From: Psammoneis japonica
Taxonomy: Eukaryota
Length of the DNA stretch: 33,923 bases
Direction of reading: 5' to 3'
Assembly: GCA_008632985.1 (NCBI GenBank)
Contig: QPGO01000390.1
Span: 1 to 33,923, forward strand
How positions within the stretch are numbered: the stretch's first letter is position 1; each line of letters opens with the position of its first letter. A program made the translations under genes and the position numbers. Shown piece after piece: positions 1 through 25,400 of this stretch. Below the pieces are notes generated by a model, which saw nothing but the letters and a program-made list of their open reading frames with translations, did no database searches and was not told the DNA's origin.

Positions 1-2500
1 ATTCTGTGTGCAAGCTCTGCAGTGGGAAAATTTCATCAGTGTGTGTTTTTGTCTTCACTGTCAAACAAACACCAAAATTTGCAGTGCATTTTTTACACCT
101 GCCCATGCTCAAAGTTTTAGAAAATTGGCCTGCCCCACGCCAATCTTGAGGGGGGTCATTTGCCACTTTGTTCAGCTTGAATTCGGCCAAATGGCTCGTG
201 ATTTGCATGATTTTTTCTGAATTTGACCACAGTTCATCATGGCAAAAACATCAAGCCACAAGTCTGTGATGGAGGTGGGCCATCTGTCAACTCTCATTTG
301 TTTTACATTTGTTGTGTTTTAAAGGTCACACACTCATCAAATGTTTGAGGATGGACCACTGCATTTTGGGGAAATGCTGACATTGCCGTCATTCATCATT
401 CTTGTGCTTTGACCACTGTGTCTGATGCTCTCATTTTTGTGCACGATCAGGGGTGGATGCAAACAATTTTTGCACTCAAAAACAAAAACACTGCAAATGT
501 CCCCTTGTTCAAATGCAATGACAATTCCAGGACAAATGTGGGGATGACCCCCCTTGAGACATTTGCGAATGGCGCAGAAGAAAAAACATTGAAAGTTGTT
601 GAATGGATCGCCCAACAGTTGCACTGCAAAATGATGCAAAATTCCACAAAAGTAAAGTGGACATGCACGTGCATGACACACGGCGCAATCCAAAAAACTG
701 TCGACATCAGCACTTGTTTTCCATTGTTGAGATGGTGGATTTTTGGATTGTGTGCTTTGTGGCTGCACATGGGGTCATGCACAAACAACTCACCCCCCCC
801 TTGTTTCCCACACCTGACAAGGACAATCACATGATGCAAGCCCTGATCATTGCCACATTGTCAAAAATCCATGTCCAATGGCTGCAATCATTGGCTGGAA
901 TGTTTTGCATGGTCATTTGCAGCAGGAGCCTGGGAGCCTTCTTTTGAAGCCCTCATCTTGTGTGCACCTGAAGTGACAGAGGAGCTCATTCAATGCAAAT
1001 GATGGGCCCTTTGTTTTTCTGATGTCAAGCTTCTTCCCAAGACAAAATCCCTTTGTTGTTGTCTTTGTGGACTGCACCATGTGGTCACACAAACCAAGTT
1101 CTGTCTGCAGTCAAAGTTGTTGACAACCAGGCTCTCAGTTGCCCTCGTCAACTCCTGGAGCTTGTGCTCAGTTGTTGTTGCGCCATTGCACAAAACTGGG
1201 AGCTGTGTCATCTGCATCATCTGGCTGATTCTTGAAGTTCTCTTGTCAACAAAGCCTGTCACAGGACAGGAAAGTTGACAATGCATGTCTCTCCCCTTGG
1301 AGTCACATGAAACAGCAGACCCCCGCCTTTGTTTCCTCATGCCTCAAGACAGCGAGATCAATTTGTGAAACACAGGCAGGCCACCTCCTTGCACAACCAC
1401 CATCAATCCACATCAACTCTCCAAATCATCCAAAAAAGCATCTTCATTGCTTCAGCTCAACTCCCTCAAAAAAGCTGACAGTGCTGTTGGCCTCCTTTCT
1501 CTCCATGTCCTTGTTGAGGCTGATCACCACACAGAGAGGGCAGCTGCGGCAAAGCTTGAGAAGTGGGTCCACGTGCCTTGATTTGTTCCCAGCTTGGCAC
1601 ATGGCATCATGAGCATCTGGACAGGAGGCTGCAAAGAATGCTTCTTTGGACAGTCAATCTTGAAAATCCACACATGCCCATGCCTGGTGTTCTGTTTCTG
1701 CTTGGGGGGTTGCTTGCGTGGGCTGCAACGGTGCAGGTTGGCCCTGGAGGTGGGTGTGCAAGAGACCTCAATTGTGCTCCCTCCAGCACCTTCTTGAAAA
1801 TGCCATTGTTGACAGCACTGTTCCTTTCAAGATTGACAGCAGCAGCACGGGTTGCATGTTGCTTTCCTTTGGCCCAGCATTGCCAGGCCCAGGTGCAATC
1901 ATGCACTTGTTGATTTCCTTCAACTCTCATCCACACAGTTGGCCCATCCTTGAATTGGCGGTTTCCTCTGAGTTCAATGAAACAATTTGACCATTGAGGT
2001 GCCATTGTTCAAAGTCTTTGCAGACAAACAGAGAAGCCCAAGAACATTGTGGATGTCTTTCTCTCTAAAATTTTTGATCTTAACTCCATGTTCACACAGA
2101 CGATGAGACATCATGCACAGCCATCCAGCAAAAATGAAAACGTGCTGTTGCCAGGGGATTCCCATCTCTGAAGTGATTGTGACGTCACACGCAGAATCAC
2201 GTGCGCTCTGGCACAAAATCGAGTGATGATCACTCGACCCAATTCTCCTTTTGTCACACCAGGCATCACAGCTTTCTACAGAATTGTCATCCACTGGATT
2301 TCCGCTGCGTGATTTTTCCACATCGCTTGGTGCAAATGGGTTGAGCAGACTGCAGGCAACATGCAATCAACCGTTGCGTTGAGAAAACAGCCGTCAATGA
2401 ATGGACGTCTCTTCCACAAGTGCAACATTCTTTCCTTGCAAGGTCGTTTGTCAACAATCACTTGGCACATTTCTCCTCACAAAAAGTTAACAAAATTGTG
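1..2500. other. Unidentified degenerate, hypermutated sequence (probable repeat or gene relic)
   Basis: Both TA and CG are strongly depleted. Fragmentary minus-strand ORFs (447-839, 990-1340, 1607-2005) carry no motif I recognise. Confidence 0.35.
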
Positions 2501-2638
2501 GTTCTCAACACAACCGTTCATAAAAATTCACACAAAGTGTCTAAAAGAAGAAGACGATTGTACATTTAAGAGGATTCTTCTTGGTCTTCGTCATCAGAAT
2601 CACTGTCAGCCAAAGAGTTTTGAAGCTTTGATTTGAGG

Positions 2639-5424
2639 TCATTGAGGTCGCGCCTTTTTCTGAACGCAAATAGAGTCGAGATGTTCTTTGGTGACTTTCA
2701 TCTCTTTAAGGGCATCCTTCTTCACTTCAATGCTCTTCCCTGACAAACCGGTGTTTGGACAAACCAGCCGAATCAAGATCTTCAGCTCATCTCCCTTCAA
2801 CGTCTCGTGCGCACTGCACTGAGGCACAGTGGAGCGCAGTGCATCAAACTCATCGAGCACTTTCGATTGTTTGGCGATGTCAGCCTTCAGTTTCGTTTGC
2901 TCTGCCTCACCAACCTTGATCATCCTTGTCTTGGTGCGGCGCATGGCAACAATTGCATTCTCACCTTGTGCTGTCTTGACAACGGCTCCACGTCTCTTCT
3001 TTTTGGGCGGTTGCTCGGAAGCACCTGCTGCATCGGCAATCGCATCCTTTCGCTTGAAACCGGCAAGCACGTTGGACATCGTTGCATGCGTTGCGATGCT
3101 GACAGCATTTGCACCACTGCTGTTTACCTCTGCTTCAAAGCCGGCAATCAAGGCCACACATGGTTTCTCAATCATCTCTTTCAATTGCAAAAAATCCTGA
3201 AAAGAAAAGCTCTCACCAATTGTTTTCCCTTGCTCTTGTTGACACCAGACTCCAAACATTTCGTCGCGCTGTTCCGCAGCCTTCTGTTTTGCAGCTTCGA
3301 TTGATGCTGTCTGCTCTCTCTGTCTCTGTTGCCTTTTGTGGAGATGCTCTCTTCTGGTTGCAGCAGGATCTTTCAGAAATTTTTTGGGGTCGACGCGGCA
3401 GTTAGAAGCATCCAGCAAGTTGCTCTCGGCCACGATGCGCTCAGTCCCATCTTCCAGTGCCAGCTTCCAATTTTGATTGCCTTGGAGCGTGACAACTCCA
3501 TCAAAGGTTGCACCAGTGGGATCAAAAAATTGCACTTCAATGGCATCAATGAAAGGTTGCACCGAACACAGTGCCACTGCAGTCCAATCTCGCGCACGCT
3601 CCTCTTTCGTCTTTTCCACCGCACGAGGCAGTGATGCCGCATCAGGCAAGTGACATTGTACAAGTTGCATTGCCAGTTCTTCTTGTTTGCTTGTTGGCTC
3701 TGGTTTCTCACTCTTGCGCTCTTTGTCCTCTCTCCATTTTGCCAACATTGATTTTGCCACTGGCATCACGACATCCAGGTCATGCAGCAGCAGGTTGTCG
3801 TCGTCGTCGTCGTCGCAGCCCTCGCGGAGAATCTTTCTTGATCTCTCAGAAACGGCAATTCGGTTGTCAGGTGGGAGAGGCTCAATTTCCCACTCTCGTT
3901 TTTGTTGCTCTTGTGCTTGTTCTTCCTTTTCTCTTTGCGATTCTAGGGCGAGTTCGTGTGCGGTCCCCATTGTCTCTGGCACTTCCGTCCACGCAATGCA
4001 ATCAGGGTTGATTGGCTCGAGAGTCCGGTTTCCTTCCAGGCGCTTGTGCAGACATTGCTTCCTTTGGACAAGAGCTCAGCCTTCTCGGCTTCAAGGTGAG
4101 ATTTCCAAGCGGCGAGAAAAACTCGGTTTGTCAACCGCACTCCTTTTGCAAGACCGCTCTTGTGCCCAACCCTCTTTGCCTCTTCCTCGATCTTGGCATG
4201 CAGGCGTTTGTTGACACCTCGATCGTTTGGTTGCGTCCAGATGGATGTGTGAGATGGCAGAAAAAAAACAACAGACGTTGTGTTCCCAGAAACACTTGAG
4301 AGCAGCGTAGCACCAATGCGAGGCGTGTCCGTTGAGAAGCAGCATCGTGGCGTTCCTCATTCGTTCCTCGTCTGTCGTGTGGCTTGTTTTTCCTTGACCC
4401 TTGGGAAGGTTCTTGCAGTGATGAATGGCAAAATCGAGCATTGTGTCTTTCTCCATGCTTCCGTTTGTGGTGGTCCGGACATCAAAGCCGTGCGGGTTGT
4501 CGCTGAACTTGGCGTTGGGGTTGGGATTTGCTGGGGCGAGGCCGTCAAGATGCATTTCACCAACAGCAGTCTCGTCTTCTGGAGCATTGATGTGGTTGGA
4601 GTCATTGGTCTTCTTCTTGGATTTGGAGGCATGCACAAGGAACGGCGAGGCTCCTTCAATTTCTTGGCATGGAATTGCATTGATGCCTGTGGAGGCGGAA
4701 GGGCACAAGGCAAGTGCACTCAACAATTGTCCAGAGCAAGGCAGCAACAAGGATAAAGTGGCACCCCTTTGCTCACCATCTGCTCTAGAAGCAACACACA
4801 TGGCAAGATGATGGCTCATTTTCCCGTCACCCTCGGGAGTCCTCTGAAAAATCCGCAGCTTCTTCATCACCTCCTTGAACACTGGTGCTTTCTTGCGGCA
4901 TTTTGCAGTGTCCATTGCAACTTCATCCATGTTGCATTTTCTAAAAACCTCAAGCTTCTCAATGCAATCAACATCAATTTTACCTGCAGCATGGAGATGC
5001 TTCACAAAAGACTGCAACTTTGCAAAACATGCGTCCCGAACCTCTTTCGTCCCCTGCTCAGCACGAATTGGGTCCAAACTTGAAGCTGAAGCTAGTTTTG
5101 CTAGCTTTGGATGGCATTGGAGCATGGAGCACACAAAACAATCAGACACAGACGGCTTTTCACGCTCATCAATGAACTCATTTGTCAAGTCATTCACAAT
5201 CTCAAGAACAGTGTCCTTTGACACCCCGTGTCCCATCTGACCCAACCAGCAGCAAACTTCAACAACATGCTTCTCTTCGTCGTCAGCAAGAATCCCATTT
5301 CCCTTGTGCAAGGCAGTGATTGCCTCCTTTGCCTTCTTGTCTTTCACTCCAAAAAAGTTGCAAATGGCTTCTTGTGCTTTCTCCACTGAAGCTTTTTCTT
5401 GACAAAGATGACGAAGTCCACTTT
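2639..5424 (-). pseudogene. pogo/Tc1-mariner superfamily DDE transposase pseudogene (CENP-B-like HTH + DDE_1 + long charged C-terminus)
   Basis: Motifs in order: CNMDE (=YNMDE), ASRADG, NGSM, LLLNGHASH (=LLLDGHxS). After a frameshift in the A-run at ~4261-4268 come LPSHTSIWTQPND and AWKETGL; a second frameshift at ~4010 leads into ORF 2639-3982. Probable in-frame 90-nt GT-AG intron at 4776-4687. The N-terminus appears cut at the junction with the Penelope-like element. Confidence 0.85.
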
Positions 5425-5501
5425 TGCCATGGGGTTTACAAATGTACAACACACCTGTAGCACTGACAAGACTTCAGTTGTCTTGCCCAACTTGCAAAGC
5501 T
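5425..5501. repeat. 77-bp direct repeat, copy 1 (3' pseudo-LTR portion)
   Basis: TGCCATGGGGTTTACAAATGTACAAC...CTTGCAAAGCT matches 9357-9433 with 6 substitutions. Confidence 0.9.
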
Positions 5502-5547
5502 TTGACGACAACAAGCTTTCGCTTTCGCTTCATCAGTGCAGTTGGCA
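5484..5547 (-). ncRNA. Type I hammerhead ribozyme (extra A between A9 and G10.1)
   Basis: Minus strand reads ugccaac-ugca-CUGAUGA-a-gc(gaaa)gc-GAAA-gcuu..aagc-U-U-ugca-aguugggca. It has the conserved core boxes, a 2-bp stem II with GNRA loop, a 5-bp stem III and an extended stem I. Predicted cleavage is between 5497 and 5496. Confidence 0.75.
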
Positions 5548-5909
5548 TTTTTCCTTGCAAGCTAAAAAAGTCGAGATTGGCACTTTGAACGGTTCTGAGG
5601 GCGGCAGCTGCCGTGAGACCGTCAGGGAGATGCCAAGTGTGCATTTGCATGTGAAGCGCACAAAGCACGCTTGTCTTAGCCCAAAACTCCAGTGGAGAAA
5701 AAGTGGGAGTCCAGGTTTCAGGTGGTGTTCCTGAGCCCAGACACTGAGACAATAAAAAGAGACCAACTGCATGGTGGGTGGTGATTGGGGTTTGGTGTGA
5801 CCCCAATTCAAAAAAACTCAAATGGGCGCAAGCCGAAGTGCCGCAGGCACGGAAGGCAGCCCATTTGAGTTTTTTGCCGGAGGTGAGTCGTCGCGACGGC
5901 GTCGCCGAT

Positions 5910-8083
5910 TCAGTGCTCCGGTGTGAGCATCTCCATGTAATTTGATGCCCGCTGCCCTTCAGGTTCATTGAGGCATGTGTTCATGAGTGCATCTCTGAGG
6001 TTTGGTGGCCTGGAGTGTGCTGTCACGAACCTGCTGAATCCTGCACATCCTTCTAGAGTTGCTTTGTGGGCACGTCTAATGGATGCTCGGGGTGTTCCTC
6101 TTGGGTGATGTTCCCGGTGGAAGAACAAGGCTGAGGTGGGTTCGGCAGCGGCAGTGGAGGTGGGTTGCTGAGAGGGTCCGTCTGACCACTCTGCAGCTTC
6201 CATGAACAGCTTCTGGATGGTCTGCATGTTGTGTCCTCTTTGATGGAGGCGTGTGGCGAAGTTCTTTGCTGCGTTGATGCAGTCGCGAACGTCGGTGTTT
6301 TGCATCCAGAATCGTCGGAGGTTGCCATGCACAATGCTTTTCAACACTCCAGGTGCGTGTGCAGAGCTGGGTGGGATGTGTGGGAAAAGGTTCATTGGTT
6401 TTTGGCAGGTGCTGGCAGCCACTCGGTTGTCTGCTCCAATTCGGACATTTAAATCCAGGAAGACGCTTTGGTGGAGAGTGGGGAGGCAATCCATTGGAGG
6501 GGTCCTGAGTTGTTCAGTTCTTCTTTGAATTGCTCCCAAGTTTCGTCATTGTCTCCTTGTGCCATCCATGCACCAAGCATGTCGTCGATGAATCGTCCGC
6601 AGCAGCGGAGGTTTTCGGAGAACTGGGCTTGAAGCACTTGTCTTTCGTGGAGGGCCTTGTACAGGGCAGCGCACATGCAGGCTGTGCTCGTTCCCATTGC
6701 AGTTCCACTGGTTTGCAGCCAGCATGTGTCATCAAATTGGATGATGTTCCGGGTCATCACTGTCTTTAGGGTGGTGAGGAAGAATTGTTTTGGGAAGCCT
6801 GGGGGCATTTCATTTGGGCATTCCTTGAACCAGTCTTCAAAAACTCCAAGTGCATGGTTGGTGTCGATGTTGGCGCACATGCCAACGGCATCAACAGCAA
6901 ACAGTTTGGCGCCAGGTGGCAGCTCACCAAGTGCTCGTAGGTCGGACAAGACTTGATGTGAGTCTCGCATGTAGGACCGGGAGAGGGACAGCAGCTTTTT
7001 CATTTGTTTGTCAAGCCACTTCGAAAACATCTCATTGAAGCCACTTGCACAGCTCACGACAGGTCTTGTTTGCCAAGGGGTCTTGTGCACCTTAATCGTG
7101 ATGTAGAACAGTGGGAGACGGTGGGGCAGCTTGAAGCTGCGGGCAAAGTGGGTGCACTCTGCTGCGCTCAGATCGTGTTTTGCCGTGTTGCAGGCATTCA
7201 TGAGCTGGTGCTTGGTTTGTTGTAAGAGCTGGGTTTTTCTTGCTGGGGTGAGGCACTGGCAGTTTTGTTCGTTGAGAAGGTGGTCTTGCAGGGCTCTCGA
7301 CATGTGTGTCTTCCATTCCACAATGACAGGTCCGAGGTTTTTGTCACTCAGACAGACTGTAAAACGCGTGTCGTTCTTCAGGGCATGGAGCAGGCGGTGT
7401 TGTCTTGGGTTGAGGTTGTGCCATTTTCTGCCGGCCGCGGCTTGGTGGCTCATGCGGTCAATGCAGTTGGCAAAGTCCATCATTCGGAGTTCAACACTGC
7501 CTTCTTCAATTTGCGGCGGTTCCCAATGTGACTTGACGCACAATCCGGGGATGTGTCCATCATCGGTGGCAGGGTTTTCCGCATTGGCGATGAAGTGGCA
7601 CAGGCGGATGGAGCGTTGCAGCCGTTCTGTTCCATCTGCCTCCTTGGTTGAGGGTCGGGCTCGTTCTGTGCAGAACTTGTGTCCAAGGCCAAGGAGTGTT
7701 GCTAGACTGGGTGGTGGTTTTGTGGTCGTGCAAAGGTTGTGGTGGCCCAGGTCACTTGGGCGGCTGAAGCATTCGACTGGTTTTTGGTTGCCGAGGGCGG
7801 TGACAGCATTTTGCCAGGGAGTGCAGTTGGGGTTTGGCACAAAGCCGCAGGTGCGCAGGCAGCAGCTGTCGGATTGGGCGTTGGCGGTGTCAAGCGGCTG
7901 TTGGGCGTTTAAGCACGTGAGTTTCGCTTCCTTCGCTGCTTGTTGTTTCTTGATTCTTTTTGCCCGCCGTTGCGCGGTGCGCCTTGGTTTCCTTTTCCGT
8001 TTCTTTTTTGTTGGGAGGGCTTGTGGGTGCGCCATTGCTTCTTGCTTGGGGGACCGTTGTGCTTTGTTCCGGTGTTGCGGCAT
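5910..8083 (-). pseudogene. Penelope-like reverse transcriptase (ORF2), frameshifted near 6470
   Basis: DKNLG, KVHK..RPVVS, AVDAVGMCANI, QTSGTAMGT, GRFIDD, then FLDL, TCQKPMNLFPHIPPSSAH, RLHQRGH, HSRPPNLRD. Expected Tyr positions are occupied by Cys/His. Confidence 0.9.
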
Positions 8084-9341
8084 GGTGTTGTGGCATCTTT
8101 TCCGGCCGGCAGGGCTTTCCGGTCGCCCACATCGTTTTTTCGTTTCTGTCCTTTCTCTTGGTTTTGCTTTTGTTTCTTCACTGACTTTGCTGCATGCTTG
8201 GTGATGGCCGGTGGTTTTTGTTTGAATTTGTTGTCCACTGCTTGTTGCACAAGTTGCTGCAGAGTCGCTGGGGTTGCTGTCGGCTCTTGTTCCAGCGCGG
8301 TTGCTGTGGCCTGGGCGGCGGCTCGTTTCTCATGGGAGTTCCAGTGAGCCTTGACTTGTGCATCTGCTCAGCCAAGTTCATGCTCGTAGTTGATCTTGTT
8401 TTGGAGCGTCGTGGTCATCTCTTCGAAGGTGTTCTTGTAATTTAGCCACATTCTGATGCACTCGTAGATTCTCGTTTCTGAATCGGTGAATCTGCAGTCA
8501 GCTGGTTCGGCACGCGTGGTGTTCGTTGTGCCGGTGGCTGTTGCATCAGCACCTGCATTTGTAGTTTCAGCTGCTGCTGTTGTGGCGGCTGCTGTGGTTG
8601 GTGCTGCTTGGTTGTCTTCGGGTGCATCTGTGGTGAGGTGCAGCAGAATTTCTTGGAGAGTGCCTTCTCTCTGTGTTCTTGTGGGTGGGCAGTGAAGAAA
8701 GTGTCGGGTGGCAATTTTTTGGCGTGTCACAGTGGGCACAGGCCTCCCAGTTGTCGCCAGGTGTTCTTGGCAGCACCCTTTCCACGTGCCATGCAACAAA
8801 ACACGCAGTGTTCGAAGAGCTCAAGGCTGGCATGTGTGAATGTAGTTGCTCGCTCAGCTTTCGCTGTGTCGAGTTCACGTTCCGCCATTTTGTGCATGAG
8901 TTTCGCACCTTTCTCTTGGAAGTCCGAAAGTGGCTCTTGAAATTCACCAATGAGCTCCCCAGCTTTGGTGTCGTCGTTGAGCTTGTTGCCATGTTGCAGT
9001 TCAAGGTTCTCAAACCTTAGACTGCGAGGGACGAAGGGATTTTCTGGATCGCCGGTGAAGGCGGATGCGCTCTTCTCTCGAAGTTGTGCTTGAGTGCTGG
9101 CAGCGATCATGTGTGTCACCAGTGACTCGATGGCGTCCTGCAGTCCTGCTGGCTGCTTCTCAATCAATTCCCGGCATGGTTCGAGCATGTCTTTTTTGTC
9201 TTTTTTGCATTGCTCGGCTGCTGTTGGGGTTGCCTGCTGTGGTTGTTCTTGAGTGGCAAAGGTAACTGCACGCACCGCTGCCACGGTTTCGCTGTCTTTT
9301 GCAGGCGTGATGGGATTGGAAGCACTGGTGGTTGTCATCAT
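7909..9341 (-). pseudogene. Penelope-like element ORF1 (helical/coiled-coil, Lys-rich C-terminus), disrupted
   Basis: Chain of ORFs 8727-9341, 8368-8799 and 7909-8250. The last two are in frame across one TGA at 8368-8370. It overlaps the start of the RT ORF. Confidence 0.55.
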
Positions 9342-9356
9342 TCTTTGGACATGCAC

Positions 9357-9433
9357 TGCCACGGGGTTTGCAAATGTGCAACACACCTGTGGCACTGACA
9401 AGACTTCAGTTGTCTTGCCTGACTTGCAAAGCT
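9357..9433. repeat. 77-bp direct repeat, copy 2 (5' end of the Penelope-like element)
   Basis: Matches 5425-5501; all differences fall at pyrimidine-purine dinucleotides. Confidence 0.9.
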
Positions 9434-10022
9434 GCGCGATTGCAATTGACCAATTGCTGCTCCGCAGTGATGCAGTCGCCTGATTGCAATCTGATTGCTG
9501 CAGAAAACTTTGCAATTAGTTGACACTGGGATGAGAGATGGAGAGACCGGAGGGAAAGATTTTTCCCTCATCTGGAACTCGACAGCAAGCTTTACTGTGG
9601 CGATTTGAATGCTAATGCTCACATCTGTTAACAGATGGTAACATAAGTTGGTCGCGTTCTGATCAGAATTTCAGCACTAGAAAAATTACGTACAATTCTA
9701 CGTGATCACTTCACACCAAATTATCATTTCAGAGATGGGATGGAATCCCCTCTAGAGCTCGTTCGCTGCGAATCTTGAATCTTCATCAGATTGAAGATGC
9801 AGTTTCCATTCCGGGACGAGGCTATCTTGTTTCGCCTCCCCATCCACCTACTAGCCACAAACACAACACTGTCCGTGCGTTAATTAGCCGATGCTCCTTG
9901 AATCTAAATGCAGACAGTTTGCTCTCTTTTCTAGATTTTGCACGCGATCATACATCTCTTCCTGTCGAATCGGAAGCCTTGACGTTCATTGTTCATTCGG
10001 TGTGCGCCATTGTCAGAAGAGA

Positions 10023-15271: not shown

Positions 15272-15597
15272 CTCTGCAAAAGGCAAAAGGTTGCCGAACC
15301 TTACAAAATGACTTGTCAAAATTAACCACCGTATTACTTTTATCTTGTGTGATGAGGAGTTCCCTGTTATTCTTTGGCGATAGCTGCAGAGCTAAAAACG
15401 GTAACGCTATCTACTTTATAAGTGTCTGTAGTTGGACATTGAAACTCTTAAAAGTGGAACGCAGTGAAAAGCGAGTGATCGTCTAGATTATGAGCTACTT
15501 TCTCGTGGTGGACTGAAAATGTGGCGAGGAACAAGGAACAAGGAAACCGTTAGCCGATTGGCGATTCATGTGCCAACGGTTAACGGTTTCTTGTGCT

Positions 15598-16212
15598 GGA
15601 ACACTAACGAAAATGTCGCCAAAACGGAAAAATGAGACATTTTGTATTATCTTGCGACAATCAAGAAATAATGCATTCTCGTTAGCTCGGCGCATCCATA
15701 TATACATGCTTTGCTTTTAATTGACTCCGTAGAACAATCATTTATCGCCAGTTTGATGAGACATTTCTGACAATGTCGCCAAAATCGCCAGTGGCACTTA
15801 AGTAACTAGTTTATACAATATTATGCAATATTCATACATGAATAGGTCTTAGCAAAGGAAGACACATGGAGACAACGTGAGACAAAGTGACTTGATCTCA
15901 CTTTGTCTCAAGTTGTCTCACTTTGTCTCACGTTGTCTTCATGTGTCTTCCTTTGCCAAAACTTGTGCATGCATTCATTGCATGGCATGTTGCACAAACT
16001 AGTTGCTTGAGTGCCACTGGCAATTTTGGCAACATTGTCAGAAATGTCTCATCAAACTGGCAACAAATGATTGTTCTGCGGAGTCAATTGAAAGCAAAGC
16101 ATGCACGCAGATCTGCCGAGCTGGCCAGAGAGAATGCGTTGTTTCTTGATTGTCGCAAGATGATGCAAAATGTCTCAGTTTTCCATGTTGGCAACATTTG
16201 TGTCAGTGTTCC
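15598..16212. repeat. ~295-bp inverted repeat (arms 15598-15890 and 15918-16212); foldback/MITE-like or two head-to-head element ends
   Basis: The reverse complement of the left arm aligns end to end with the right arm. Four 10-bp TCTCA(C/A)(T/G)TTG units lie at 15896-15935. Confidence 0.9.
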
Positions 16213-19200
16213 TGACTGTTGGATGACATCAGCTTGAATGAGCTCTGCTTTTGAGCCACCCAGAAAAGATGGCAAAGACCAGTGGTTGGCTTTTGACAAG
16301 ATGAAGATGAAAGCGGAAAATGGAGCCACGAGATTTTGATGAAGGATTTGTTGTGGGTTAGAGGAAAAGCATGGGTGCAAAAACCTGATGGTGAAAAATA
16401 AAAGAAAAAAGGGGATGGTTTGTTTTGAACCTTGAATTGATTTTTGTGCCAACTCCATTTTGGATTGGGCAGAAGATGGTGGTGTGGCGCATGGATTGTC
16501 GCATCGACAAAGGCTCACAGCCAGGACCAATTGTTGTGCGTGTGCTCATGTGTCAGAAGAGCAGACAACTGGGCTTCGGCAAGTGGATCTTGATGGACAG
16601 CATGAAACTGTGTGCTCACATGACATGAGAACGGCAGGTGGGATGGATTGTGGCTCGGTGCTTCATTTTTGCAATGCTCGGACAGTGAAGACAAGATTTT
16701 CCAATTGTGAGATGACATGCGATCACGTGTTTGTCTGCCGTTGATGGTGGCAAAATTAAATGGTCCATGAAGGAACATGTCTTGATGATGAATGTGTGCC
16801 CATTGGGAGAAGACGGTGAGTCGTTTGTGTCACGTGTGCAGCTGGTTTCATTTGGGGGAGGTTTGAGCAGATGAAAGTTGTTGTGAAGGACAAATTGTCC
16901 ATTGAGCTCATGGCACTCTTTCCAATGTTGCTGATTCAGGGCATCAAATTGCACATCATGTGGGTGCCGTGCGAAAAAGACGACGCAGATTTTACCATCA
17001 GAGAAGGCGTTTGGATTTTCCACCATGGTTCATTTGAGATTCACTTGAACAAGATTCCACTCAGTGCGAGTTGTGCCTGGTGCTCAACATGCCACAAAGA
17101 ACAGTTTGTGCTTGCTCTGGATAATGCGGGCCATGAGCTGATTCAGATTTGGTGCCGAGTTGGCTGGTTGCAGTTGTGCTGTGCTGCAGGCACTCCGATG
17201 TTGAACTGAGGGCCAGTCGAGGCCGTGCTGTCATTTGTGCTTGACACATTGCCTTCGAGCACCTTGATGAATGCTTCATTTGCTGATGTTTTAAGATCAT
17301 CCTTGGTTGCTGGCAAGAATCCTTCTTTGGTGTGCACCCTGTTGAGCTCATCTTTTAGCTCAGCAAGAGCAGGAAAGTGTGCAGCAGATTCAATGCATGC
17401 CATGTTGACTGTTGACAGCAGTGATTGGGATGTTGGCACACTGCTCTTGCAATGGGAGTCAATGCCAGCCTCCAAAAATGGATGCTTCTTTTGATGCCTC
17501 TGTTGATTTGCCCACAAGCATTGTCCGGTCCTGTGTCAGTTGGAAATGGAATGAGTTCTGTGGGGCAGGGGGACACATGATGTGAAGCATGCTTTTTGTT
17601 TTCTGCATTTGTCTTGCAGTGATGGATGCAACAGGAAGCTCCTGGTGGCTTCTCGATGATCTTCCATGGGCCTGCATGGTGACACATGATTGCTGTTGAC
17701 ACACTTGCAATGCATTGCTTGATGTTCTTGGATGAGTGCTCGGAACACCTCCTGGCACTTTGGAAGCAAGTGGCGCAAGCGCTCGGCACAGTTTTTGACT
17801 GATTTTGATGTTGGTTGCAAGTTGACAAAATTGGAGTCCGTGTGGTTGATTGGAAATCGGCGTTCACGTCTGATGGCAACAAGAGATCAACTGATGTCTG
17901 TGCCCACTGCTGGGGCAGAGTTCCATGCACATGCTGAAAGCTGGGTGCCTTCCACAGCTGTGTGGACTGAGTCACGCTCATTGCAGAAAATGCACAAAGC
18001 TTTGTTGAGGAATGAATGGCATTGCTCTGTGAGGATTGGATCGTGATTTCCTCTGGATGCTTGATGCAGATTGAGTTGAAGGAGGTTGATGGCTTGGATG
18101 AACACTCCACAAAATTTTGAATCTTTGTCGATTGCTGTCTTGTGACATGGGCCATGGTTGAGTGGTGCTTTCATGATGGCTTTGCTGAATGACTCCGCAT
18201 TGACTTCACCACAGATTTCTTCTGATGCTGCAAAAGTGCTCATGCCATCGACAACATGCATGCAGCATCTCTCCCCTTGGAAGCCTTGTTGATGTCCGAC
18301 CATGTGTGCATCTGCATGAATTAATTTGAGCAGCTCGTTGATGGGAAAAGAGCACACTGGTTCCGATTTCTGTTGACATCGAGCGTTGGCCAGGGTCCAA
18401 CCTGGGCACTTGTTGATGATGAGGCCAGCAATGTGCTTGCACATGGTCAGCCAAAAGAGTCTCAATCAGATCCTGTGAAAGGTGTGGCAGATGCTGAAGT
18501 GGCTTCCAATGGGATTGGCATGAAATGCAACGAACATGATGTTGTGAAGGGATGATGGTGCGATTCGGAGTTTTGCGAAATTGCTGACTGAGTGGACGGA
18601 TTTACAGATGACAAGCATTTTGCCTTCGACAGTGATGTTGCCTGCTGCTTGCATTGGCTGACAACAGCAGCAATGGATCTTTTGTAACTCATCCTTGTTG
18701 ATCAAGGCCGGGTTGTTGATCATTTGGACCATCAGGTTTATCTCTGGGTTGCAAGAGCACTCCTGGATCCAGGTGTCTCTGCCAGGCAGTCGCGTCATTG
18801 TTGAACCATTGAGAAAGGCTTGCGCAGTGGCTGCAGGAGCGGTTCCCTGTGATGTGTCGATGAGTTCCGTGGATGACAGCCGGGTGTTGGTTGACTTGTC
18901 ATGGACAGCTTGCAGCATGGCATGGCTTGTCTTGCCTGGAATTCCATTGGTCAGTGGGTCAAGCTGTCAAGGATTGGTGCACATTTTATGAGTGATGTTC
19001 CTTTCAAGCCCCCAACAGGAGATGGACTCGTGTGCTGAGATGCAACGGATGGAGTCTTGGATTCCTCATCTTGAAAGAATGTTCCAGAGGCTTGATCAAA
19101 TGGGTTGGAGTTGTGCTGACCGATTGGTGGGGCGGGATGATCCACGTCGTAGATGGCTGTGCCACATGGATTTGATGGTGTCAGTCCTTTTTTGACCAAG

Positions 19201-19800
19201 CAACTGATGACTGGGGCGTCCAACTGCTTGGGTGGCTGATTGGGCTCCACCTTGTTGAACACACATCTGTCTTCCTCAACCTCTTTGGTTGCAAGGGCTG
19301 AGGTGAGCACGCGGCTCAAGGAAGTGGTCAATCCCGCCCACTTGTGACTCAGTGCTTTCCCACGGTGAAAATTGCGCAGGAATCCAACGATGACAAAAAC
19401 GGTCAGATGACTTCCGATGACAACAACATCAACTGCATGTAACTTTCATTCTTTGCTTGTCAATGAATGTGTTGGCAACTTGAAGTATTGCGTGCAATTG
19501 CTTCCCTGAACTGTGATGGCAGCTCCTGAACCATTTGAATTGTTCTGCTCAAAGATGCTTGCGTGTCGCCAAGCCAAGACAGTGTCACTTCAATGCTTGG
19601 GCGGGATGCATCCTCATGCCATGACCATCATGTCAGCTCAATCGTGGTGTCCCTTGGCTCCCTCAAGCGACTCGATTCTGATCCAAATTATGAACGCAAA
19701 GCTGCACATGACTGCCACATTTGGATCTGTCTCTGCTCTCTAACATGTGCTGCAGAGCCACCAGAGAGGTGGAGGCCCTGCAGCAGATGCTGCATCTCCT
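15900..19800. other. TpA-depleted hypermutated domain 2
   Basis: Abrupt loss of TA from ~15900, with TG/CA excess; TA returns at ~19820. Confidence 0.9.
16515..19331 (-). mobile_element. Degenerate Ty3/gypsy-like LTR-retrotransposon pol 3' part (H2C2 zinc finger + integrase core + C-terminal region)
   Basis: FHANPIGSH...TFHRI*LRLFW...KCPG zinc-finger region; IHADA, VVDGMSTFA, IDKDSKF, EQCHSFLNK, AWNSAP core. Many stops and frameshifts; no RT or LTR pair identified. Confidence 0.7.
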
Positions 19801-20208
19801 GCCTCCGGTCGTTCCGCCTCTCTCTACTCTATTGTGCGTCCAGTAGACCTCCGAGCGATAACCATAGTCTACTCTCTCTCTCTAGCTACTAGGCCCCACC
19901 GAGAGGCTAAAATAAAGACAATGCGTTGGCATGCATTGGATCGCAGATCTATCTGTCTGTTCTCGCTCGTCGGTTCTGAACATTAAAAACTCTTCGTCAC
20001 CGATTACCTGAAATGAAATTTCAAAAAAGAGACCCGGAAGATCGCGTTTTTTGACGCGATTGTTCGACGGATCTTTTGTGTCATCGCTCATCATCGGCTG
20101 TCCGCTGATGATTGCCAATAAAATTGCGGGGACAACAACAAACTATCCTACGACAACACTAGAGCTATTGAACCGAACCGTATCTCATTGCTAACTGCCT
20201 ATCAGAAC

Positions 20209-20823
20209 ATGTGTATCTCTCAACTTTTGATTCTCACCGCGTGCGCTGCAACGACTTTTGCGTTTGTCGTCAAAGCACCAACGACGACCAGAAGTTTTTC
20301 TCCGCGCATCAGCCGCTCAGCCATTCGTTACCAGCACAAGCACTTGTCGGAAGTCGATGAAATGTGTGTCGAGAATGCTGCAGCGTACTGCCTCGAAAAC
20401 GACCTATCCGTAGACTGTGACTTGGAGGAGCACGATGCCTTGGTGCGCACACTTGAGGATCAGCGCGAATACCATCGAGAAGAGGTGCAAACCATCAATT
20501 CGCTCTTGTTCAAGCTTGGCCAGCGAGAATCAGAAGATGTCAATCACATTAAGCGAGGTTCCATTAGCCATCCCATTCGTCATCATCATTTGGATGAAAT
20601 TGACGAAATGTGCATTGAAAATGCGGCTCGCTATTGCTTGGAGGCCGACGCCGCTGCTTCTACGGAATGCGATTTGACCGAGATTGAGGCTTTGATCACG
20701 ACCCTTCAAGAGCAGGATGAATTCCACCTAGAACAGTTGGAGACTATCAATGATCTGCTTGGGAAGCTTGAAGCACCTCCTGGATACCTTGGCCCTTATG
20801 ATTACTCTTCCGTAGAGGCTTAA
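20209..20823 (+). CDS. Unknown small protein with signal peptide and transit-like region (probably plastid) and two Cys-containing repeats
   Basis: MCISQLLILTACAATTFA-FVVKAPTTTRS resembles the ASAFAP bipartite signal. Two copies of HLxExDEMCxENAAxYCLE...CDLxExxALxxTLxxQxExHxExxxTINxLLxKL. Confidence 0.75.
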   Translation: MCISQLLILTACAATTFAFVVKAPTTTRSFSPRISRSAIRYQHKHLSEVDEMCVENAAAYCLENDLSVDCDLEEHDALVRTLEDQREYHREEVQTINSLLFKLGQRESEDVNHIKRGSISHPIRHHHLDEIDEMCIENAARYCLEADAAASTECDLTEIEALITTLQEQDEFHLEQLETINDLLGKLEAPPGYLGPYDYSSVEA

Positions 20824-20837
20824 GATTGAAGATACTA

Positions 20838-21029
20838 TACCGCGTTGCCCAATTATTGTAGCTACCATCACCTAGATTGGATGAGCTATAAGCTACAGAA
20901 AAAGAAACCTAGAGAGTGCGAACTGCTATACTACCTGTACTGCTTACCGCGTTGCCCAATTATTGTAGCTACCGTCGCCTAGATCGGATGGGTTCTACTC
21001 TAGAAGCTACAGAAAAAAGAAATCTAGAG
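20838..21029. repeat. Imperfect ~80-bp direct duplication (20838-20914 / 20945-21029) between convergent genes
   Basis: TACCGCGTTGCCCAATTATTGTAGCTACC...AAGCTACAGAAAAAGAAA(C/T)CTAGAG occurs twice. Confidence 0.85.
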
Positions 21030-21228
21030 TAGAACGCGGGTATAGAACGTGCGATCTGCTTCGCACTTTTGGTTTCTCCGGAGTCTGAAGTGTGATGAGG
21101 TATCGGTTGACCCGGGATGGCTCACACTGTTGGTCCGGCAAGCCCTCTCTCGTTTGTCTATTGAATCAGGGCCTATCAAAATATTACTCCTAGAGACTAT
21201 TTTAAAACAGTGGTCAATTTCCACCCTC

Positions 21229-23655
21229 CTAACCTTTTCTAACTTTCTCCAAGCCACACAACAAGTACTTTTTACGCAAATCTCGACTTGATTTTGATTT
21301 CAAGTCCTTTTTAGCAACAGCATCCCACTCCCAATAAGGTACCGATAGTACGCGATACTTCTCTAGTTTCACCAGCTGGCGACGTTTTATTATCGTAGAC
21401 CCAGTTGGTGATCGATCAGAAAGAAAGTGGCTTGGTCCGTCCACTTCAATGGCAACGTCTCGGTTGTGACATCGAACTACTGCATCCAAGCTGTAGCCTA
21501 TATCCGTTCGGAATTCTTCCCTTGCGTTGAGTCCAAGGTCCGAAAGCGTCTTGACAACATCCTTCTGCAGCTTGGATGGATTGCCTTGTTTTTCAACAAA
21601 AGCCTCTCGACATCTCTGTTGTAAGTCGTAATCAAGCTGCAGCGAACTTCCATGCTCAAGACACCAAAGGCGCACTTGATGGAGTTGCCTTAAAGCCTCT
21701 ACAGATAAAAAGGCAGCATTTGAGCTGAAGGCCTTTATAAAGGGCGATGCATCTCCCATTAAAATGTCACTGCATTGGTCACAAACCGCGCATGCCCACA
21801 TCAAGTTTGCAAGGCCTTGCGGGGTGAAACTGCCCAATTTTGACACAGCTACTCCAGCTGTGGCATGAAAAAGCGACGGGGCCGAGTGTCCGACTGTGGC
21901 ACAGGCCCATGCCGTGTTTGCTATATCTTGAGGGTTGAAACTGTTTAAGCTTGACATTGCTTCTCCAGCTATGGCATCAAAAAGCGACGGCGCAGATTGT
22001 CCGACGGCAGCATAGGCCCATGCTGTGTTTGCCAGGGATTGAGGGGTGAAACTGTCCAATCTTGATATTGCTTCATCAGCAATAGCATCAAAAAGCGACG
22101 GGGCCGAGTGCCCGATGGTAGCATAGGCCCAAGCCGTGTTTGCTAGGCTTTGGGGGGTAAAATTGTCCCATCTTGGTATTGCTTCTTCAGCAATAGCATC
22201 AAAAAGTGACGGCGCAGATTGTCCGACGGTAGCATAGGCCCATGCTGTGTTTGCCAGGGATTGAGGGGTGAAACTGTCCAATCTTGATATTGCTTCTTCA
22301 GCAATAGCATCAAAAAGCGACGGGGCCGAGTGGCCGATGGTAGCATAGGCCCAAGCCGTGTTTGCTAGGCTTTGGGGGGTAAAATTGTCCAATCTTGGTA
22401 TTGCTTCTTCAGCAATAGCATCAAAAAGCGACAGGACCGAGTGCCCGATGGTAGCATAGGCCCAAGCCGTGTTTGCTAAGTTTTGGGGAGTGAAACTGTC
22501 CAATCTTGGTATTGCTTCTTCAGCAATAGCATCAAAAAGCGACGGGGCCGAGTGCCCGATGGTAGCATAGGCCCATGCCGTGTTTGCTAAGTTTTGGGGA
22601 GTGAAACTGTCCAATCTTGGTATTGCTTCTTCAGCAATAGCATCAAAGAGCGACGGCGCCGAGTGTCCAACTGTGGCATAGGCCCATGCCGTGTTTGCTA
22701 TTTCTTGCGGGTTGAAACTGCCCAATCTTGGTATTGCTTCTTCAGCAATAGCATCAAAAAGCGGCGGCGCCGTGTGTCCAACAGTGGCAAAGGCCCATGC
22801 CGTGTTTGCTATCGCTTGAGGGTTGAAACTGCCCAATCTTGGTATTGCTTCTTCAGCAATAGCATCAAAAAGCGGCGGCGCCGTGTGTCCAACAGTGGCA
22901 AAGGCCCATGCCATGTTTGCTATAGCTTGAGGGTTGAAATTGCTGATTTGTGTAACAGAGACATGAGCAACCTTGTCAAATAGTGTCGTCGACGTATGCC
23001 GAAACGTAGCAAATGCCCAGGCAATGTTGGAAATGTGTCTTGGAGACATGTCACCCAAAACAGAGAGCGTTCTCTCCTCCAAACTGTTCCATCCATCTCG
23101 GTCAATCGTGTACCTGCATGCTTTCGACATTTTGGAGATGCTGTGAATAGTCATCGCAAGCGATTTGGTATCAAAACCTCTGATGTTCTGAACGGAATGT
23201 TCGATCAGGCGTCGCAGCTGCTGCTCGTTCTCTCGAATACTTTTTCGCTCTTGCCTGTTGCTCAATGTAATAGTGCAAATTTGGTTCCAGCATATTGAAA
23301 TATCTCTTGGGCTCATTTTTGCTCCGTGAGCCTCGCGAACGTCCAGCACTTGTGAAACCCTGTCGAGATTTCTTAAATTTGGTAGCCTCCATTGATTTCG
23401 CTTTTTCTTCTGTTGTTTCAGCGGGAAGTAGAACGAGTCACCAGCAGAGCTCCCGGTCCGGTAATGTCGTTCAGTCGAAACAAGGTGCCGTGTTCTGTGG
23501 CTTGATGGCAGTTGTCGAGTTGCAGTAACGCTGCACGAATTTGGCAGCGAGACCAGGTGGATGGGATGGGCGAGAACAACTCCCACTTTTGTCGCGGCCC
23601 TTTGGCGAAACCCACAGCTAGTGTACACTGTGGAAGCTCTCGAGGATAGCATCAT
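21229..23655 (-). CDS. Helical-repeat (37-aa, HPR/OPR-like) RNA-binding protein with C-terminal RAP domain, probably organellar
   Basis: About 12 repeats FxPQxxANTAWAxATxGHxAPxLFDAIAEEAIPRLxx; RAP motifs GYSLDA, AIEVDGPSHF, KRRQL, VLSVPYWEW; Ser/Arg-rich N-terminus. Confidence 0.9.
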   Translation of the reverse strand: MMLSSRASTVYTSCGFRQRAATKVGVVLAHPIHLVSLPNSCSVTATRQLPSSHRTRHLVSTERHYRTGSSAGDSFYFPLKQQKKKRNQWRLPNLRNLDRVSQVLDVREAHGAKMSPRDISICWNQICTITLSNRQERKSIRENEQQLRRLIEHSVQNIRGFDTKSLAMTIHSISKMSKACRYTIDRDGWNSLEERTLSVLGDMSPRHISNIAWAFATFRHTSTTLFDKVAHVSVTQISNFNPQAIANMAWAFATVGHTAPPLFDAIAEEAIPRLGSFNPQAIANTAWAFATVGHTAPPLFDAIAEEAIPRLGSFNPQEIANTAWAYATVGHSAPSLFDAIAEEAIPRLDSFTPQNLANTAWAYATIGHSAPSLFDAIAEEAIPRLDSFTPQNLANTAWAYATIGHSVLSLFDAIAEEAIPRLDNFTPQSLANTAWAYATIGHSAPSLFDAIAEEAISRLDSFTPQSLANTAWAYATVGQSAPSLFDAIAEEAIPRWDNFTPQSLANTAWAYATIGHSAPSLFDAIADEAISRLDSFTPQSLANTAWAYAAVGQSAPSLFDAIAGEAMSSLNSFNPQDIANTAWACATVGHSAPSLFHATAGVAVSKLGSFTPQGLANLMWACAVCDQCSDILMGDASPFIKAFSSNAAFLSVEALRQLHQVRLWCLEHGSSLQLDYDLQQRCREAFVEKQGNPSKLQKDVVKTLSDLGLNAREEFRTDIGYSLDAVVRCHNRDVAIEVDGPSHFLSDRSPTGSTIIKRRQLVKLEKYRVLSVPYWEWDAVAKKDLKSKSSRDLRKKYLLCGLEKVRKG
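21785..23049 (-). repeat. 111-bp coding tandem repeat array
   Basis: Unit starts at 22938 and 21828 are exactly 10 x 111 bp apart; the units are near-identical at DNA level. Confidence 0.95.
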
Positions 23656-23899
23656 TGGTGATGGCTCTCTCTCTCTCTCAAGCAACTCTCATTGCCAAGA
23701 GGCCAAGATCAAAGTCTCGCTCGCTATTGCGAGACCTGAGATCTTCAATGCCGGTACAATCTGGAAAAAAAAAACCAAAAAATTGGGTGTCGCCACATGC
23801 AAGCAAGGAAAATCGCAGTGGCGGTCTGTCTGTACGATAATTTCTACGCATATTTTGTACTTTCGTCCGTCCATACCACCTTCCGTCCGCGCCGACCAA

Positions 23900-25400
23900 C
23901 CCGACTCCACGCCCATTTCAAACAATGTGGCTTCCATCAGCACGGGCGCAGCAACGGTTGCACAAGCTTTGAAACAGAAGATTGATGGCAGGAAAGAAAG
24001 CGACATCTTTTTGAAAGATTTTTATGTTCCTTCAGGTGAGCTGCACTTTGCTGCCAAGTAAAATGAAGCCAGGGATGTTTGGTGAGTGAAAAGAAAAGAA
24101 CTTGTTGACCAGATGAGAGAGCCAACACTCCCTCCTTGTCATGGTGTGCAGCACAAGAAAAAGCCATCAGCGGTTCTGTCTCACCACTGTGATTTCTCAA
24201 CATAAAAGTCTCTGTTTACAGTGTGATGAAGGAGCAGAGAAGCATCAGGCCACTGTGCCCACACCAGACGGAGCTCTCACACCAGCTGGGATGACTTTGA
24301 GCAGATGCTCGCCGAGCCCTTTGGTGGAGCCACAGGTGGTCATGTGCATGTTGCAGAAAATGTTCTAGATTTGCTCTCAAAATCTCTTTGCAACATTTGA
24401 TGAGTGATGAGAACAATGAAAAAAAGCACTTTTTACAAGTGCCATTTGTGAGAGCCTCTCCAAAATGGGGAGCTGACAAATGGAGCCCGTGACAAGGACA
24501 CGACTCTCATTGGGAGGTGACAGTTGTGGTTGTTCCTGATGTGTTCTCTGTGCACCAATCCAAGGATCAAGAAGTTGGCAACACACCAGCATCAGCAGTG
24601 GAAGCAAAAGACAGCCACAATCTTGGTTGACTCTGAACATGGTTGGGGATGTCCATTCAGATGATCAGAGCCATGTTGGTCACCCATTTGTGCAGAGCTC
24701 TTTGGCTGTGTGATTGACAAGAAAGTTGGTTGCGGGGTGCTGCACTCAGCAAGCAAGACTTTCTTTGTTTGTTTTGATGGGAAGGTTGTTGCCTGTCTGT
24801 GAAAGCAACCTGGCATGCATGGCACACGACGTGTGAGCAACGTCACCTCACAGCTTGGGCACTGTTCTTCTGAGCTGCTGAGTGAGATGCACATGGGACA
24901 AGAGGCAAAGAATTCTTGAAAGATTGGTGTGACCACACACCATTGCAGCATCCAAAGACCCAAACACAAAGCAGAGCAGCACATGTCCCAACTTGAGACA
25001 GTGGCAACGATGATGACCAGGGTGACAACACCGATGGCGGCAATGGAGATGAGAATGAAAACAACAGAGCTGAAAGCACTGGGTCCAACAGGTGACAAAG
25101 AACAACCGCCAGGGTCTTTGTTTGTCACAATGCATTCCTGGGAAATGCTTCAAGACACACAAAAAGGCGAGTGGGGCATCCAAAAGAGTCACATCGATTT
25201 GATGGCAATGAGCTTCAAGAGACAGCTTCACCAAATCTTGAGAGAATGGAGACCCCAAAGTTGATCTTTGTTGCTTATTTTGAGTTTGAAAAGCAGGACT
25301 TTTTCCCTTGTGACCCTTTGAGGATTTACGCGACAAACGGCATTTAGCCACCGGTCGCAATGGTGACGTCTTTGTGGTGTGTGTCAAAGGCAAAAAGCAC
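23900..25400. other. TpA-depleted hypermutated domain 3, unidentified relic
   Basis: No TA found by eye in ~24440-25270; broken ORFs; no recognised motif. Confidence 0.8.

Follow-up and report, generated by a model that had tools for sequence, protein, structure and literature searches.

Why do three blocks of the contig QPGO01000390.1 almost lack the dinucleotide TpA, while the genes between them contain it at ordinary levels? The stretch that we analyzed (the whole contig, 33,923 bp; hereafter, the window) carries what appear to be decayed mobile elements in these blocks, and an earlier reading of its sequence (i.e., the original prediction) attributed the deficit to a hypermutation of TpA to TpG or CpA. 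We consider it highly probable that the blocks reflect in-place, DNA-level, TpA-specific base editing of silenced mobile-element DNA together with ordinary CpG decay. Dinucleotide counts across the window delimited three sharply bounded, TpA-poor islands, given here with their observed/expected (o/e) ratios.

Positions 1 to 9516, island 1: an apparent composite of decayed mobile elements (54 TpA in 9516 bp; TpA o/e, 0.09).
Positions 1 to 2640, subdomain 1a of island 1: unclassified (TpA o/e, 0.07; CpG o/e, 0.30, among the lowest), holding the TA-free run at 653 to 2066.
Positions 15905 to 19740, island 2: an unclassified decayed element (17 TpA in 3836 bp; TpA o/e, 0.07; CpG o/e, 0.42).
Positions 24060 to 25275, island 3: unclassified (4 TpA in 1216 bp; TpA o/e, 0.05; CpG o/e, 0.23), holding an 842-bp TA-free run.

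The TpA ratio was scanned in sliding 500-bp windows, to which region-wise counts were added. It ranged from 0.00 to 0.24 at 1 to 9500, from 0.00 to 0.13 at 16001 to 19750, and from 0.00 to 0.17 at 24001 to 25500, while it was mostly 0.4 to 0.8 elsewhere. Across the islands and their subdomains, TpA o/e was uniform (0.05 to 0.14), whereas CpG o/e was spread between 0.23 and 0.70; the three flanking blocks of host genes exhibited values of 0.56 to 0.62 (TpA) and 0.89 to 1.00 (CpG). These counts bear out the three TA-poor domains of the original prediction and the normal TA content that it described for the genes between them, and the stretches that it judged TA-free by eye (approximately 655 to 2065 and 24440 to 25270) match computed runs. 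With the TpA frequency of the flanks (0.040) as the null, the longest TA-free runs (1413 bp at 653 to 2066, 966 bp at 17356 to 18322, and 842 bp at 24434 to 25276) have chance probabilities of 10^-25, 10^-17, and 10^-15, respectively. At the island edges, TpA content changes within about 50 to 100 bp, and the adjoining host sequence has normal levels of TpA; the right boundary of island 1 lies between a TA at 9517 and a TA run starting at 9593.

When the 16 dinucleotides were compared, TA and CG alone were depleted and TG and CA alone were enriched in all islands (CA o/e, 1.66 to 1.96; TG o/e, 1.28 to 1.83). The region-wide values were 0.58 (CpG), 1.81 (CA), and 1.40 (TG) for island 1 and, for islands 1 and 2, 1.40 to 1.81 for CA and TG (about 1.6 to 1.75 combined), with TG plus CA reaching 1.22 to 1.93 in 500-bp windows. 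Neither AA (o/e, 1.07 to 1.45), AT, or TT nor TC (o/e, 0.97 to 1.20) was depleted. The CpG depletion of the same islands was absent from the original prediction. Contigs assembled from public reads, which are a partly dependent source of support since the sequencing run may be connected with the source of the window, reproduced the TA-free sequence with no differences in 3599 bp (5869 to 9467) and two in 1540 bp (23961 to 25500). The loss of TpA in the islands is thus real, and the disagreement with raw reads that would have spoken against it was not found.

The direction of the change can be read from the genes of island 1, of which two are required here.

Positions 5913 to 8329, minus strand: a reverse transcriptase (RT) gene of an apparently TERT/Penelope-like family, in two frames (6452 to 8329 and 5913 to 6545) with one frameshift between them and with Tyr largely replaced by Cys or His.
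Positions 2642 to 5473, minus strand: a 944-codon frame with two in-frame stops only, a putative DNA-transposon gene at the motif level (CpG o/e, 0.70).

The shortage of Tyr that had been reported for both is present, with no Tyr among the 478 residues of the frame at 2642 to 4075 (minus strand) and three among the 626 residues of the frame at 6452 to 8329 (minus strand). We aligned 60 relatives of the RT and considered the columns in which at least 60% of them have Tyr. At the nine such columns, the window has Cys (three), His (two), Ser (one), and Tyr (three), while all 10 conserved Asp and all six conserved Trp of the same alignment are kept; the overall Tyr content is 0.9%, compared with 4.7% in the relatives. 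A consensus of 34 sequences reads MYTNI, YKRFIDD, TYQKP, YIPP, and AYSRP where the window has MCANI, CCGRFIDD, TCQKP, HIPP, and AHSRP. Hence, the Tyr-to-Cys/His polarity proposed from these motifs stands, with the exception of a supposed RGY-to-RGH change, which was wrong since the family consensus is natively ARGH. At the codon level, 13 of the 45 mismatches at conserved RT columns are single TA-to-TG (nine) or TA-to-CA (four) changes; the remaining 32 comprise two CpG changes, 21 other single changes, and nine codons with two or more changes. Environmental DNA loci of the family, which were retrieved from metagenomes by two peptide patterns (one requiring an intact MYTNI), had a TpA o/e of 0.56 to 1.13 in 79 of 79 cases (median, 0.81; none below 0.3), compared with 0.14 for the window copy. 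The family is therefore not natively TA-free with Cys or His at these positions.

An inverted duplication of roughly 300 bp provides an internal control. Its center lies near 15904, with which the left edge of island 2 coincides, so that the arms fall on the two sides of the boundary.

Positions 15598 to 15890, outer arm: outside island 2, an unmutated reference copy with 22 TpA and 12 CpG.
Positions 15918 to 16212, inner arm: inside island 2, with 1 TpA and 6 CpG.

The arms differ by 40 substitutions, including 21 TA-to-TG/CA changes, seven CG-to-TG/CA changes, and seven transversions. In the inner arm, transitions affected 21 of the 43 A/T bases in a TpA context but 2 of the 138 others (odds ratio, 65; p = 1.3e-13), i.e., the excess over other A:T transitions on which the original prediction depended is present. 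Among the G/C bases, transitions affected 7 of 22 in CpG and 3 of 86 elsewhere (p = 4.8e-4). A self-comparison of the window returned three paralog pairs in all and no repeats between islands. Four independent lines (the RT residues, the RT codons, the inverted duplication, and the environmental loci) agree that the direction is from TA to TG or CA.

Two processes with different context rules can be separated in these data. The loss of CpG is nearly independent of the flanking base (ACG, CCG, GCG, and TCG remain at 0.51, 0.64, 0.68, and 0.51 of their flank frequencies, respectively) and fits 5-methylcytosine decay, as judged from its sequence pattern. A single deaminase with a preference for a 5' T, acting on both T[A] and T[C]G, was considered and rejected, because the 5' base has little influence on CpG loss; the ADAT2 of amphioxus has been described as preferring TCG and GAA in DNA (PMC10354150, in the part available). 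Among the subdomains, the ranks of TpA and CpG depletion are roughly concordant, and a uniform loss of TpA with a variable loss of CpG is what is expected from two clocks of very different speed. The co-location with CpG decay suggests methylated, silenced chromatin as the substrate of the TpA process.

The 75 surviving TpA sites further define the context. Only 2 of them are in ATAC, ATAG, or ATAT, compared with 290 of 757 in the flanks; TTAA, CTAA, CTAG, and GTAA are enriched, and the table of 3' neighbors differs from that of the flanks (chi-square p = 4.5e-12). Relative to the flanks, the remaining frequencies are 0.03 for ATA/TAT, 0.10 for GTA/TAC, 0.16 for CTA/TAG, and 0.27 for TTA/TAA. 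Read as T-A-N, the extended preference is N = T > C > G > A.

TA-to-TG and TA-to-CA changes are about equally frequent (9:12 in the duplication arms and 9:4 in the RT codons), and both strands have therefore been hit. Since TpA is self-complementary, A-to-G change on both strands is indistinguishable from T-to-C change on both strands; the earlier claim of A-to-G change on both strands holds for the strands but not for the choice of base. Noncoding DNA, the RT gene, the putative DNA-transposon frame, and unclassified sequence are affected alike. Read contigs that run from island 2 into its unique flank have TA at 19729, 19771, 19780, and 19784, where the window has TG or CA, and another contig does so at 18210. 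In total, 5 of the 18 listed differences between contigs and window in island 2 are TA versus TG/CA, and 9 are exchanges between CG and TG/CA; the five also favor the direction from TA to TG or CA. Copies of the locus differ at TA versus TG/CA sites, and thus the same insertion kept changing in place. The process acts on DNA, on both strands, in place, and after insertion. The core of the original prediction (i.e., a DNA-level, TpA-specific A:T-to-G:C process on both strands, confined to mobile-element islands) is supported by these results.

The statement that no formal description of such a process exists has been overtaken by a 2026 preprint on the alga Bigelowiella natans, which describes the same mutation type and beyond which we found no other account of TpA-to-TpG/CpA hypermutation in the literature. 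According to the part of it available (Mettrop et al., bioRxiv 10.64898/2026.01.13.699255), mutation-accumulation lines yielded 302 nuclear single-base mutations, of which 231 fell in two viral inserts; 230 of these 231 were A-to-G/T-to-C changes, every one of them at a TpA, and the rate was about 10^-7 per site per generation, approximately 1000-fold higher than background. The preprint also reports 124 clusters depleted in TpA and enriched in CpA plus TpG (Rho TpA, <=0.43; Rho CpA+TpG, >=1.52) and an enrichment of DDE and RT Pfam domains among TpA-depleted coding sequences, and its authors propose an ADAT2-like adenine deaminase. By our own arithmetic (211 mutations, 6169 TpA, and 3132 generations), the B. 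natans rate would be about 1e-5 per TpA per generation, at which a 90% loss of TpA would take on the order of 2e5 generations.

By analogy, the TpA process of the window appears to be of the same kind as these de novo events. In both cases, A:T-to-G:C change is nearly exclusive, is limited to TpA, yields TpG or CpA depending on the strand, and is found only in regions of foreign origin, outside which the genome looks ordinary. Each of the three islands passes the composition cut-offs, with the limit that island 3 (1.2 kb) is shorter than three windows. As to the identity of the host, the flank TpA frequency (0.038 to 0.042) resembles the B. natans coding mean (0.041; bioRxiv 10.64898/2026.01.13.699255, available part), which is weak evidence. 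Searches of protein collections that cover MMETSP and EukProt gave no near-identical host protein, which leans against B. natans, and an exact look-up recovered 0 of 8 ORFs. The differences are that the targets here are of transposon type rather than giant-virus or virophage inserts, that depletion is near saturation (o/e, 0.05 to 0.14, versus a Rho of 0.45 in the giant-virus region), that an extended context hierarchy is visible, and that CpG decay is co-located, whereas CpG is mentioned nowhere in the available main text of the preprint.

We propose that mobile elements inserted long ago into the nuclear genome of a protist make up the islands, with a TERT/Penelope-like RT element adjoining a DDE-like element in island 1 and unclassified elements in islands 2 and 3. 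After insertion, two context-specific transition processes would rewrite their DNA in place. One would be a near-saturating conversion of TpA to TpG or CpA (A:T to G:C on either strand), removing roughly 73 to 97% of TpA depending on the flanking base, and the other would be ordinary decay of CpG to TpG or CpA, as cytosine methylation of silenced DNA produces. An enzyme aimed at silenced or foreign chromatin may edit a base at TpA, and the genes of the elements would be permanently inactivated as the outcome. For the chemistry, the foremost candidate is a TadA/ADAT2-like deaminase that would convert adenine to inosine, and to this option we assign about half of the probability. Pol-eta-like synthesis, the second enzyme named in the original prediction, fits poorly, given that AA is not depleted (o/e, 1.07 to 1.45) and that only 7 of the 40 arm substitutions are transversions.

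If instead the thymine of TpA were edited, a TET/JBP-type dioxygenase would place 5-hydroxymethyluracil (5hmU) or a base-J-like modification on silenced elements, and mispairing or misrepair would turn T into C. We regard this route as unlikely, although TpA is its own reverse complement and a T-to-C change before A equals an A-to-G change after T in all of our tests. The transposable elements of dinoflagellates are enriched in 5hmU, which silences them, and older work cited in the same paper found T to be replaced preferentially in TA and TC (PMC11572971, in the part available). TC is unaffected in the islands, the available text on a base-resolution 5hmU map of Breviolum minutum reports no sequence motif (PMC11071213), and the available parts of PMC11071213 and PMC11572971 do not tie 5hmU to a mutational signature. 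Change at the RNA level is very improbable. Here, ADAR-like A-to-I editing of element transcripts would have been fixed through reverse transcription and reintegration, and one of the affected elements does encode an RT. ADARs are not known from outside animals. They favor a U 5' of the edited A (bioRxiv 10.64898/2026.01.13.699255, Discussion, in the part available), in agreement with the TpA context, but the strands are hit about equally, noncoding sequence, the DDE-like frame, and the unclassified islands are equally affected, and two copies of the same insertion differ at TA/TG sites, so the change postdates integration.

A duplication trigger, implied by the term "repeat-restricted" in the original prediction, would make repetition itself the signal; the parallel is repeat-induced point mutation (RIP) of fungi, although the chemistry would differ. 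Mobile elements such as these targets are repeated now or were formerly, hypermutation itself erodes the identity of copies, and parts of the islands lie in read-contig bins of high summed depth (350 to 570 in bins 8836 to 10169, 15506 to 16172, and 18841 to 19507, versus about 55 on genes). Loose contig ends cluster at 9431 to 9740 and at 15589; together with the high depth, they indicate short multicopy repeats at the island edges. Yet the contig depth over most of the island sequence is that of a single copy (at >=90% likeness), no contig but its own (depth, 34 to 38) covers the RT element, which thus lacks a second copy at >=90% likeness, the self-comparison lacks repeats between islands, and the high-depth bin 15506 to 16172 holds the very outer arm that keeps its 22 TpA. 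Moreover, the hypermutable giant-virus region of B. natans is described as single copy (bioRxiv 10.64898/2026.01.13.699255, available part). On the evidence of the window and its read contigs, the trigger is therefore not supported, and we consider this alternative quite improbable. A compositional origin (i.e., native TA poverty or TA avoidance, an AT-to-GC bias such as biased gene conversion, or an assembly artifact) retains next to no probability. Horizontally acquired DNA can differ in composition, and the host genes are themselves mildly TpA poor, but the normal TpA and conserved Tyr of the RT relatives, the paralogous arm, the undepleted AA, AT, and TT, and the agreement of the read contigs have already refuted it.

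Several observations weigh against in-place, TpA-specific editing as we propose it. The metagenome search was biased away from hypermutated relatives by the pattern that required an intact MYTNI, and the TpA contexts of the flanks are an imperfect null for those of the original elements. The comparison of the arms involves two sequences and no outgroup, its direction being taken from the asymmetry of 22 versus 1; the outer arm may simply be a younger insertion, and the left edge of island 2 lies within about 30 bp of the duplication center, which is sharper than a chromatin boundary predicts. The differences listed between reads and window are 40 of 140, so that sites with the derived state in the other copy may have escaped notice. 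The link to the B. natans process consists of the shared signature; of a similarly raised rate in the present host, the five sites at which copies of the locus differ by TA versus TG/CA are at most a hint. In tRNAs with A34, position 35 is not known to be U. The T-A-T preference thus differs from the natural context of ADAT substrates, and amphioxus ADAT2 prefers GAA for A in DNA (PMC10354150, available part).

Other known systems resemble the islands in part. Fungal RIP likewise introduces context-dependent transitions into mobile-element DNA, in sharp contrast to genes, and inactivates the elements permanently. Its trigger is duplication, and it takes place before meiosis. Whereas RIP changes C to T, mostly in CpA, and creates TpA, the process here destroys TpA while CA and TG rise, and a duplication trigger is not supported. 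Decay of 5-methylcytosine explains the CpG half of the pattern (o/e of 0.23 to 0.70, excess of TG and CA, independence of the flanks) but cannot remove TpA, and methylation is deduced here from sequence. Animal APOBEC3 and ADAR enzymes also hypermutate genomic parasites by deamination with nearest-neighbor preferences; they edit cDNA or RNA no later than integration and mark the two strands unequally, whereas the islands changed in place, on both strands, and in nonretroelement DNA as well. The 5hmU of dinoflagellates shares the aim at silenced transposable elements and the older TA (and TC) preference, but no hypermutation signature is mentioned in the available text (PMC11572971), TC is unaffected here, and the genes of the window lie on both strands, which is not a dinoflagellate-like arrangement.

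Previously known context-dependent hypermutation of genomic parasites consisted of C-to-T editing (i.e., fungal RIP and animal APOBECs). The first report of an A:T-to-G:C counterpart on chromosomal DNA dates from 2026 and concerns one alga and mainly viral inserts (bioRxiv 10.64898/2026.01.13.699255, available part), so that the kind of process is already in print. What the islands add is its end state on transposon-type elements, with more than 85% of TpA gone; a clean spectrum from an internal control, together with evidence for change in place; co-located CpG decay, an indication that the target is silenced, methylated chromatin; and a hierarchy of flanking bases with which any candidate enzyme has to agree. 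If the host differs from B. natans, the known distribution of the system is widened. It is possible, though somewhat short of an even chance, that the host is indeed not B. natans and that TpA-erasing hypermutation is a wider protist genome defense, in which a DNA base-editing enzyme with a T-A-T/A-T-A preference acts in place on silenced, CpG-methylated transposon islands and viral inserts to near saturation. Functionally, such a defense would correspond to fungal RIP, but its chemistry would be the opposite. There is also a practical consequence: in such DNA, TGA is the only stop left and Tyr codons vanish, and therefore gene finders see long spurious open reading frames (ORFs) and profile searches miss domains.

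The identity of the RT is based on relatives and on a predicted fold. For the frame at 6452 to 8329 (minus strand), public protein collections yielded 123 relatives (best, 56% identity; E = 2e-103), and the frame at 5913 to 6545 (minus strand) encodes the C-terminal third (47% identity to residues 448 to 647 of the relative P0001; E = 1e-59). A model of P0001 from a 34-sequence alignment (pLDDT, 90.6; pTM, 0.87) matched TERT structures best in the PDB (6zdq_A, E = 5.7e-10; 7lma_A; 3du5_A), along with a group II intron RT (6ar3_A), at E values of 5.7e-10 to 1e-8. The RT assignment of this frame is right, and from the modeled fold the family looks TERT/Penelope-like. A sequence-profile search of the family against solved structures gave one chance-level match, so that a fold search was needed. 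In 6 of 6 full-length relatives scanned against our local Pfam copy, no GIY-YIG endonuclease and no Pfam domain of any kind was found; the precomputed Pfam family of the relatives (PF28514) is absent from that copy. Members of the Penelope-like group without the endonuclease exist, so the missing GIY-YIG does not exclude membership. The RT element is flanked by a direct repeat.

Positions 5425 to 5501, plus strand: left copy of a 77-nt direct repeat flanking the RT element.
Positions 9357 to 9433, plus strand: right copy, 92% identical to the left one.

All six differences between these copies are at TA/TG, CG/TG, or CA-versus-TG sites, and one read contig links 9405 back to 5512, which is a head-to-tail form of the element. 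Penelope-like elements are known for head-to-tail partial tandems and pseudo-terminal repeats. The contig depth over the RT element (5501 to 8835) is 34 to 38 (about 88 in the first bin), compared with roughly 55 on neighboring genes, and given this lower depth, some of the sampled chromosomes may lack the element. The family is abundant in the environment, with a relative encoded in 587 metagenome stretches. One relative, P0056, has 1.4% Tyr (median of the 120 relatives listed, 4.3%) and a Cys content raised to 2.7%; judging by this composition, it may be a partly hypermutated copy from an environmental sample.

The 944-codon frame of island 1 contains the DDE-like motif KCNMDEV in its N-terminal part (4094 to 5473, minus strand), where three truncated relatives (34 to 37% identity) read I[YF]NMDEV. 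The CNMDE motif recognized in the original prediction does not sit in the 447-amino-acid ORF named there but in the neighboring frame at 4094 to 5473 (minus strand), which belongs to the same 944-codon frame. We dropped the frame as a test of polarity because three truncated relatives are too few. Its label as a DDE-type transposase (2642 to 5473, minus strand) is putative; the motif speaks for it, but there is no Pfam match even at E <= 10. None of the island ORFs, those of subdomain 1a and island 3 included, had a Pfam match at E <= 0.01 or E <= 10, whether to a transposase, an RT, an integrase, or any other family. In island 2, an integrase-like D,D35E pattern at 17358 to 18170 (minus strand) was read by eye; it has no Pfam support, and the best protein-atlas score of the ORF (0.79) is uninformative. 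Of the "two retroelement classes" originally proposed, one RT was verified, by its fold, while the element in island 2 lacks support from any tool. ORF length alone means little in the islands, since TAA and TAG require TA and their absence leaves TGA as the sole stop, producing long ORFs in many frames. Rfam and tRNA scans of the window found nothing.

The host genes between the islands encode a ferredoxin-reductase-like oxidoreductase, an AMP-binding/carrier-protein enzyme, a FAST/RAP repeat protein, a RIOX1-like JmjC oxygenase, a WD40 protein, a hydrolase, and a glycosyltransferase. The AMP-binding/carrier-protein (NRPS-like) gene (minus strand) is a frame of about 1390 codons that is split into ORFs 14321 to 15319 and 11150 to 14317 by an in-frame TGA at 14321 to 14323. 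Contigs from two read runs have G at 14323, so that the codon is CGA (Arg) rather than a stop; the window carries either a CpG-to-TpG nonsense allele or an error there. The FAST/RAP-domain gene (21232 to 23688, minus strand) contains 10.2 tandem copies of a 111-bp (37-residue) unit with 88% matching at 21805 to 22939 and belongs to a very large family (1478 representatives below E = 1e-30 in public data). Its best representatives are 49 to 52% identical, the named relatives being from a pelagophyte (52%) and a dinoflagellate (40%); another host protein has best relatives at 41 to 42% identity and cnidarian, diatom, and MMETSP matches at 33 to 38%. Isolated N bases occur at 27849 and at 29491, the latter within the WD40 ORF. 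The TA-richest stretch of the window (20750 to 21250; TpA o/e, 1.12) is intergenic and includes a direct duplication (20838 to 20914 and 20945 to 21029; spacing, 107 bp). The RIOX1/NO66-like ribosomal oxygenase gene (JmjC_2 plus RIOX1_C_WH; 26092 to 27743, minus strand) is in at least three pieces with short introns between them, and therefore the host has spliceosomal introns, although several of the neighboring genes are long single ORFs.

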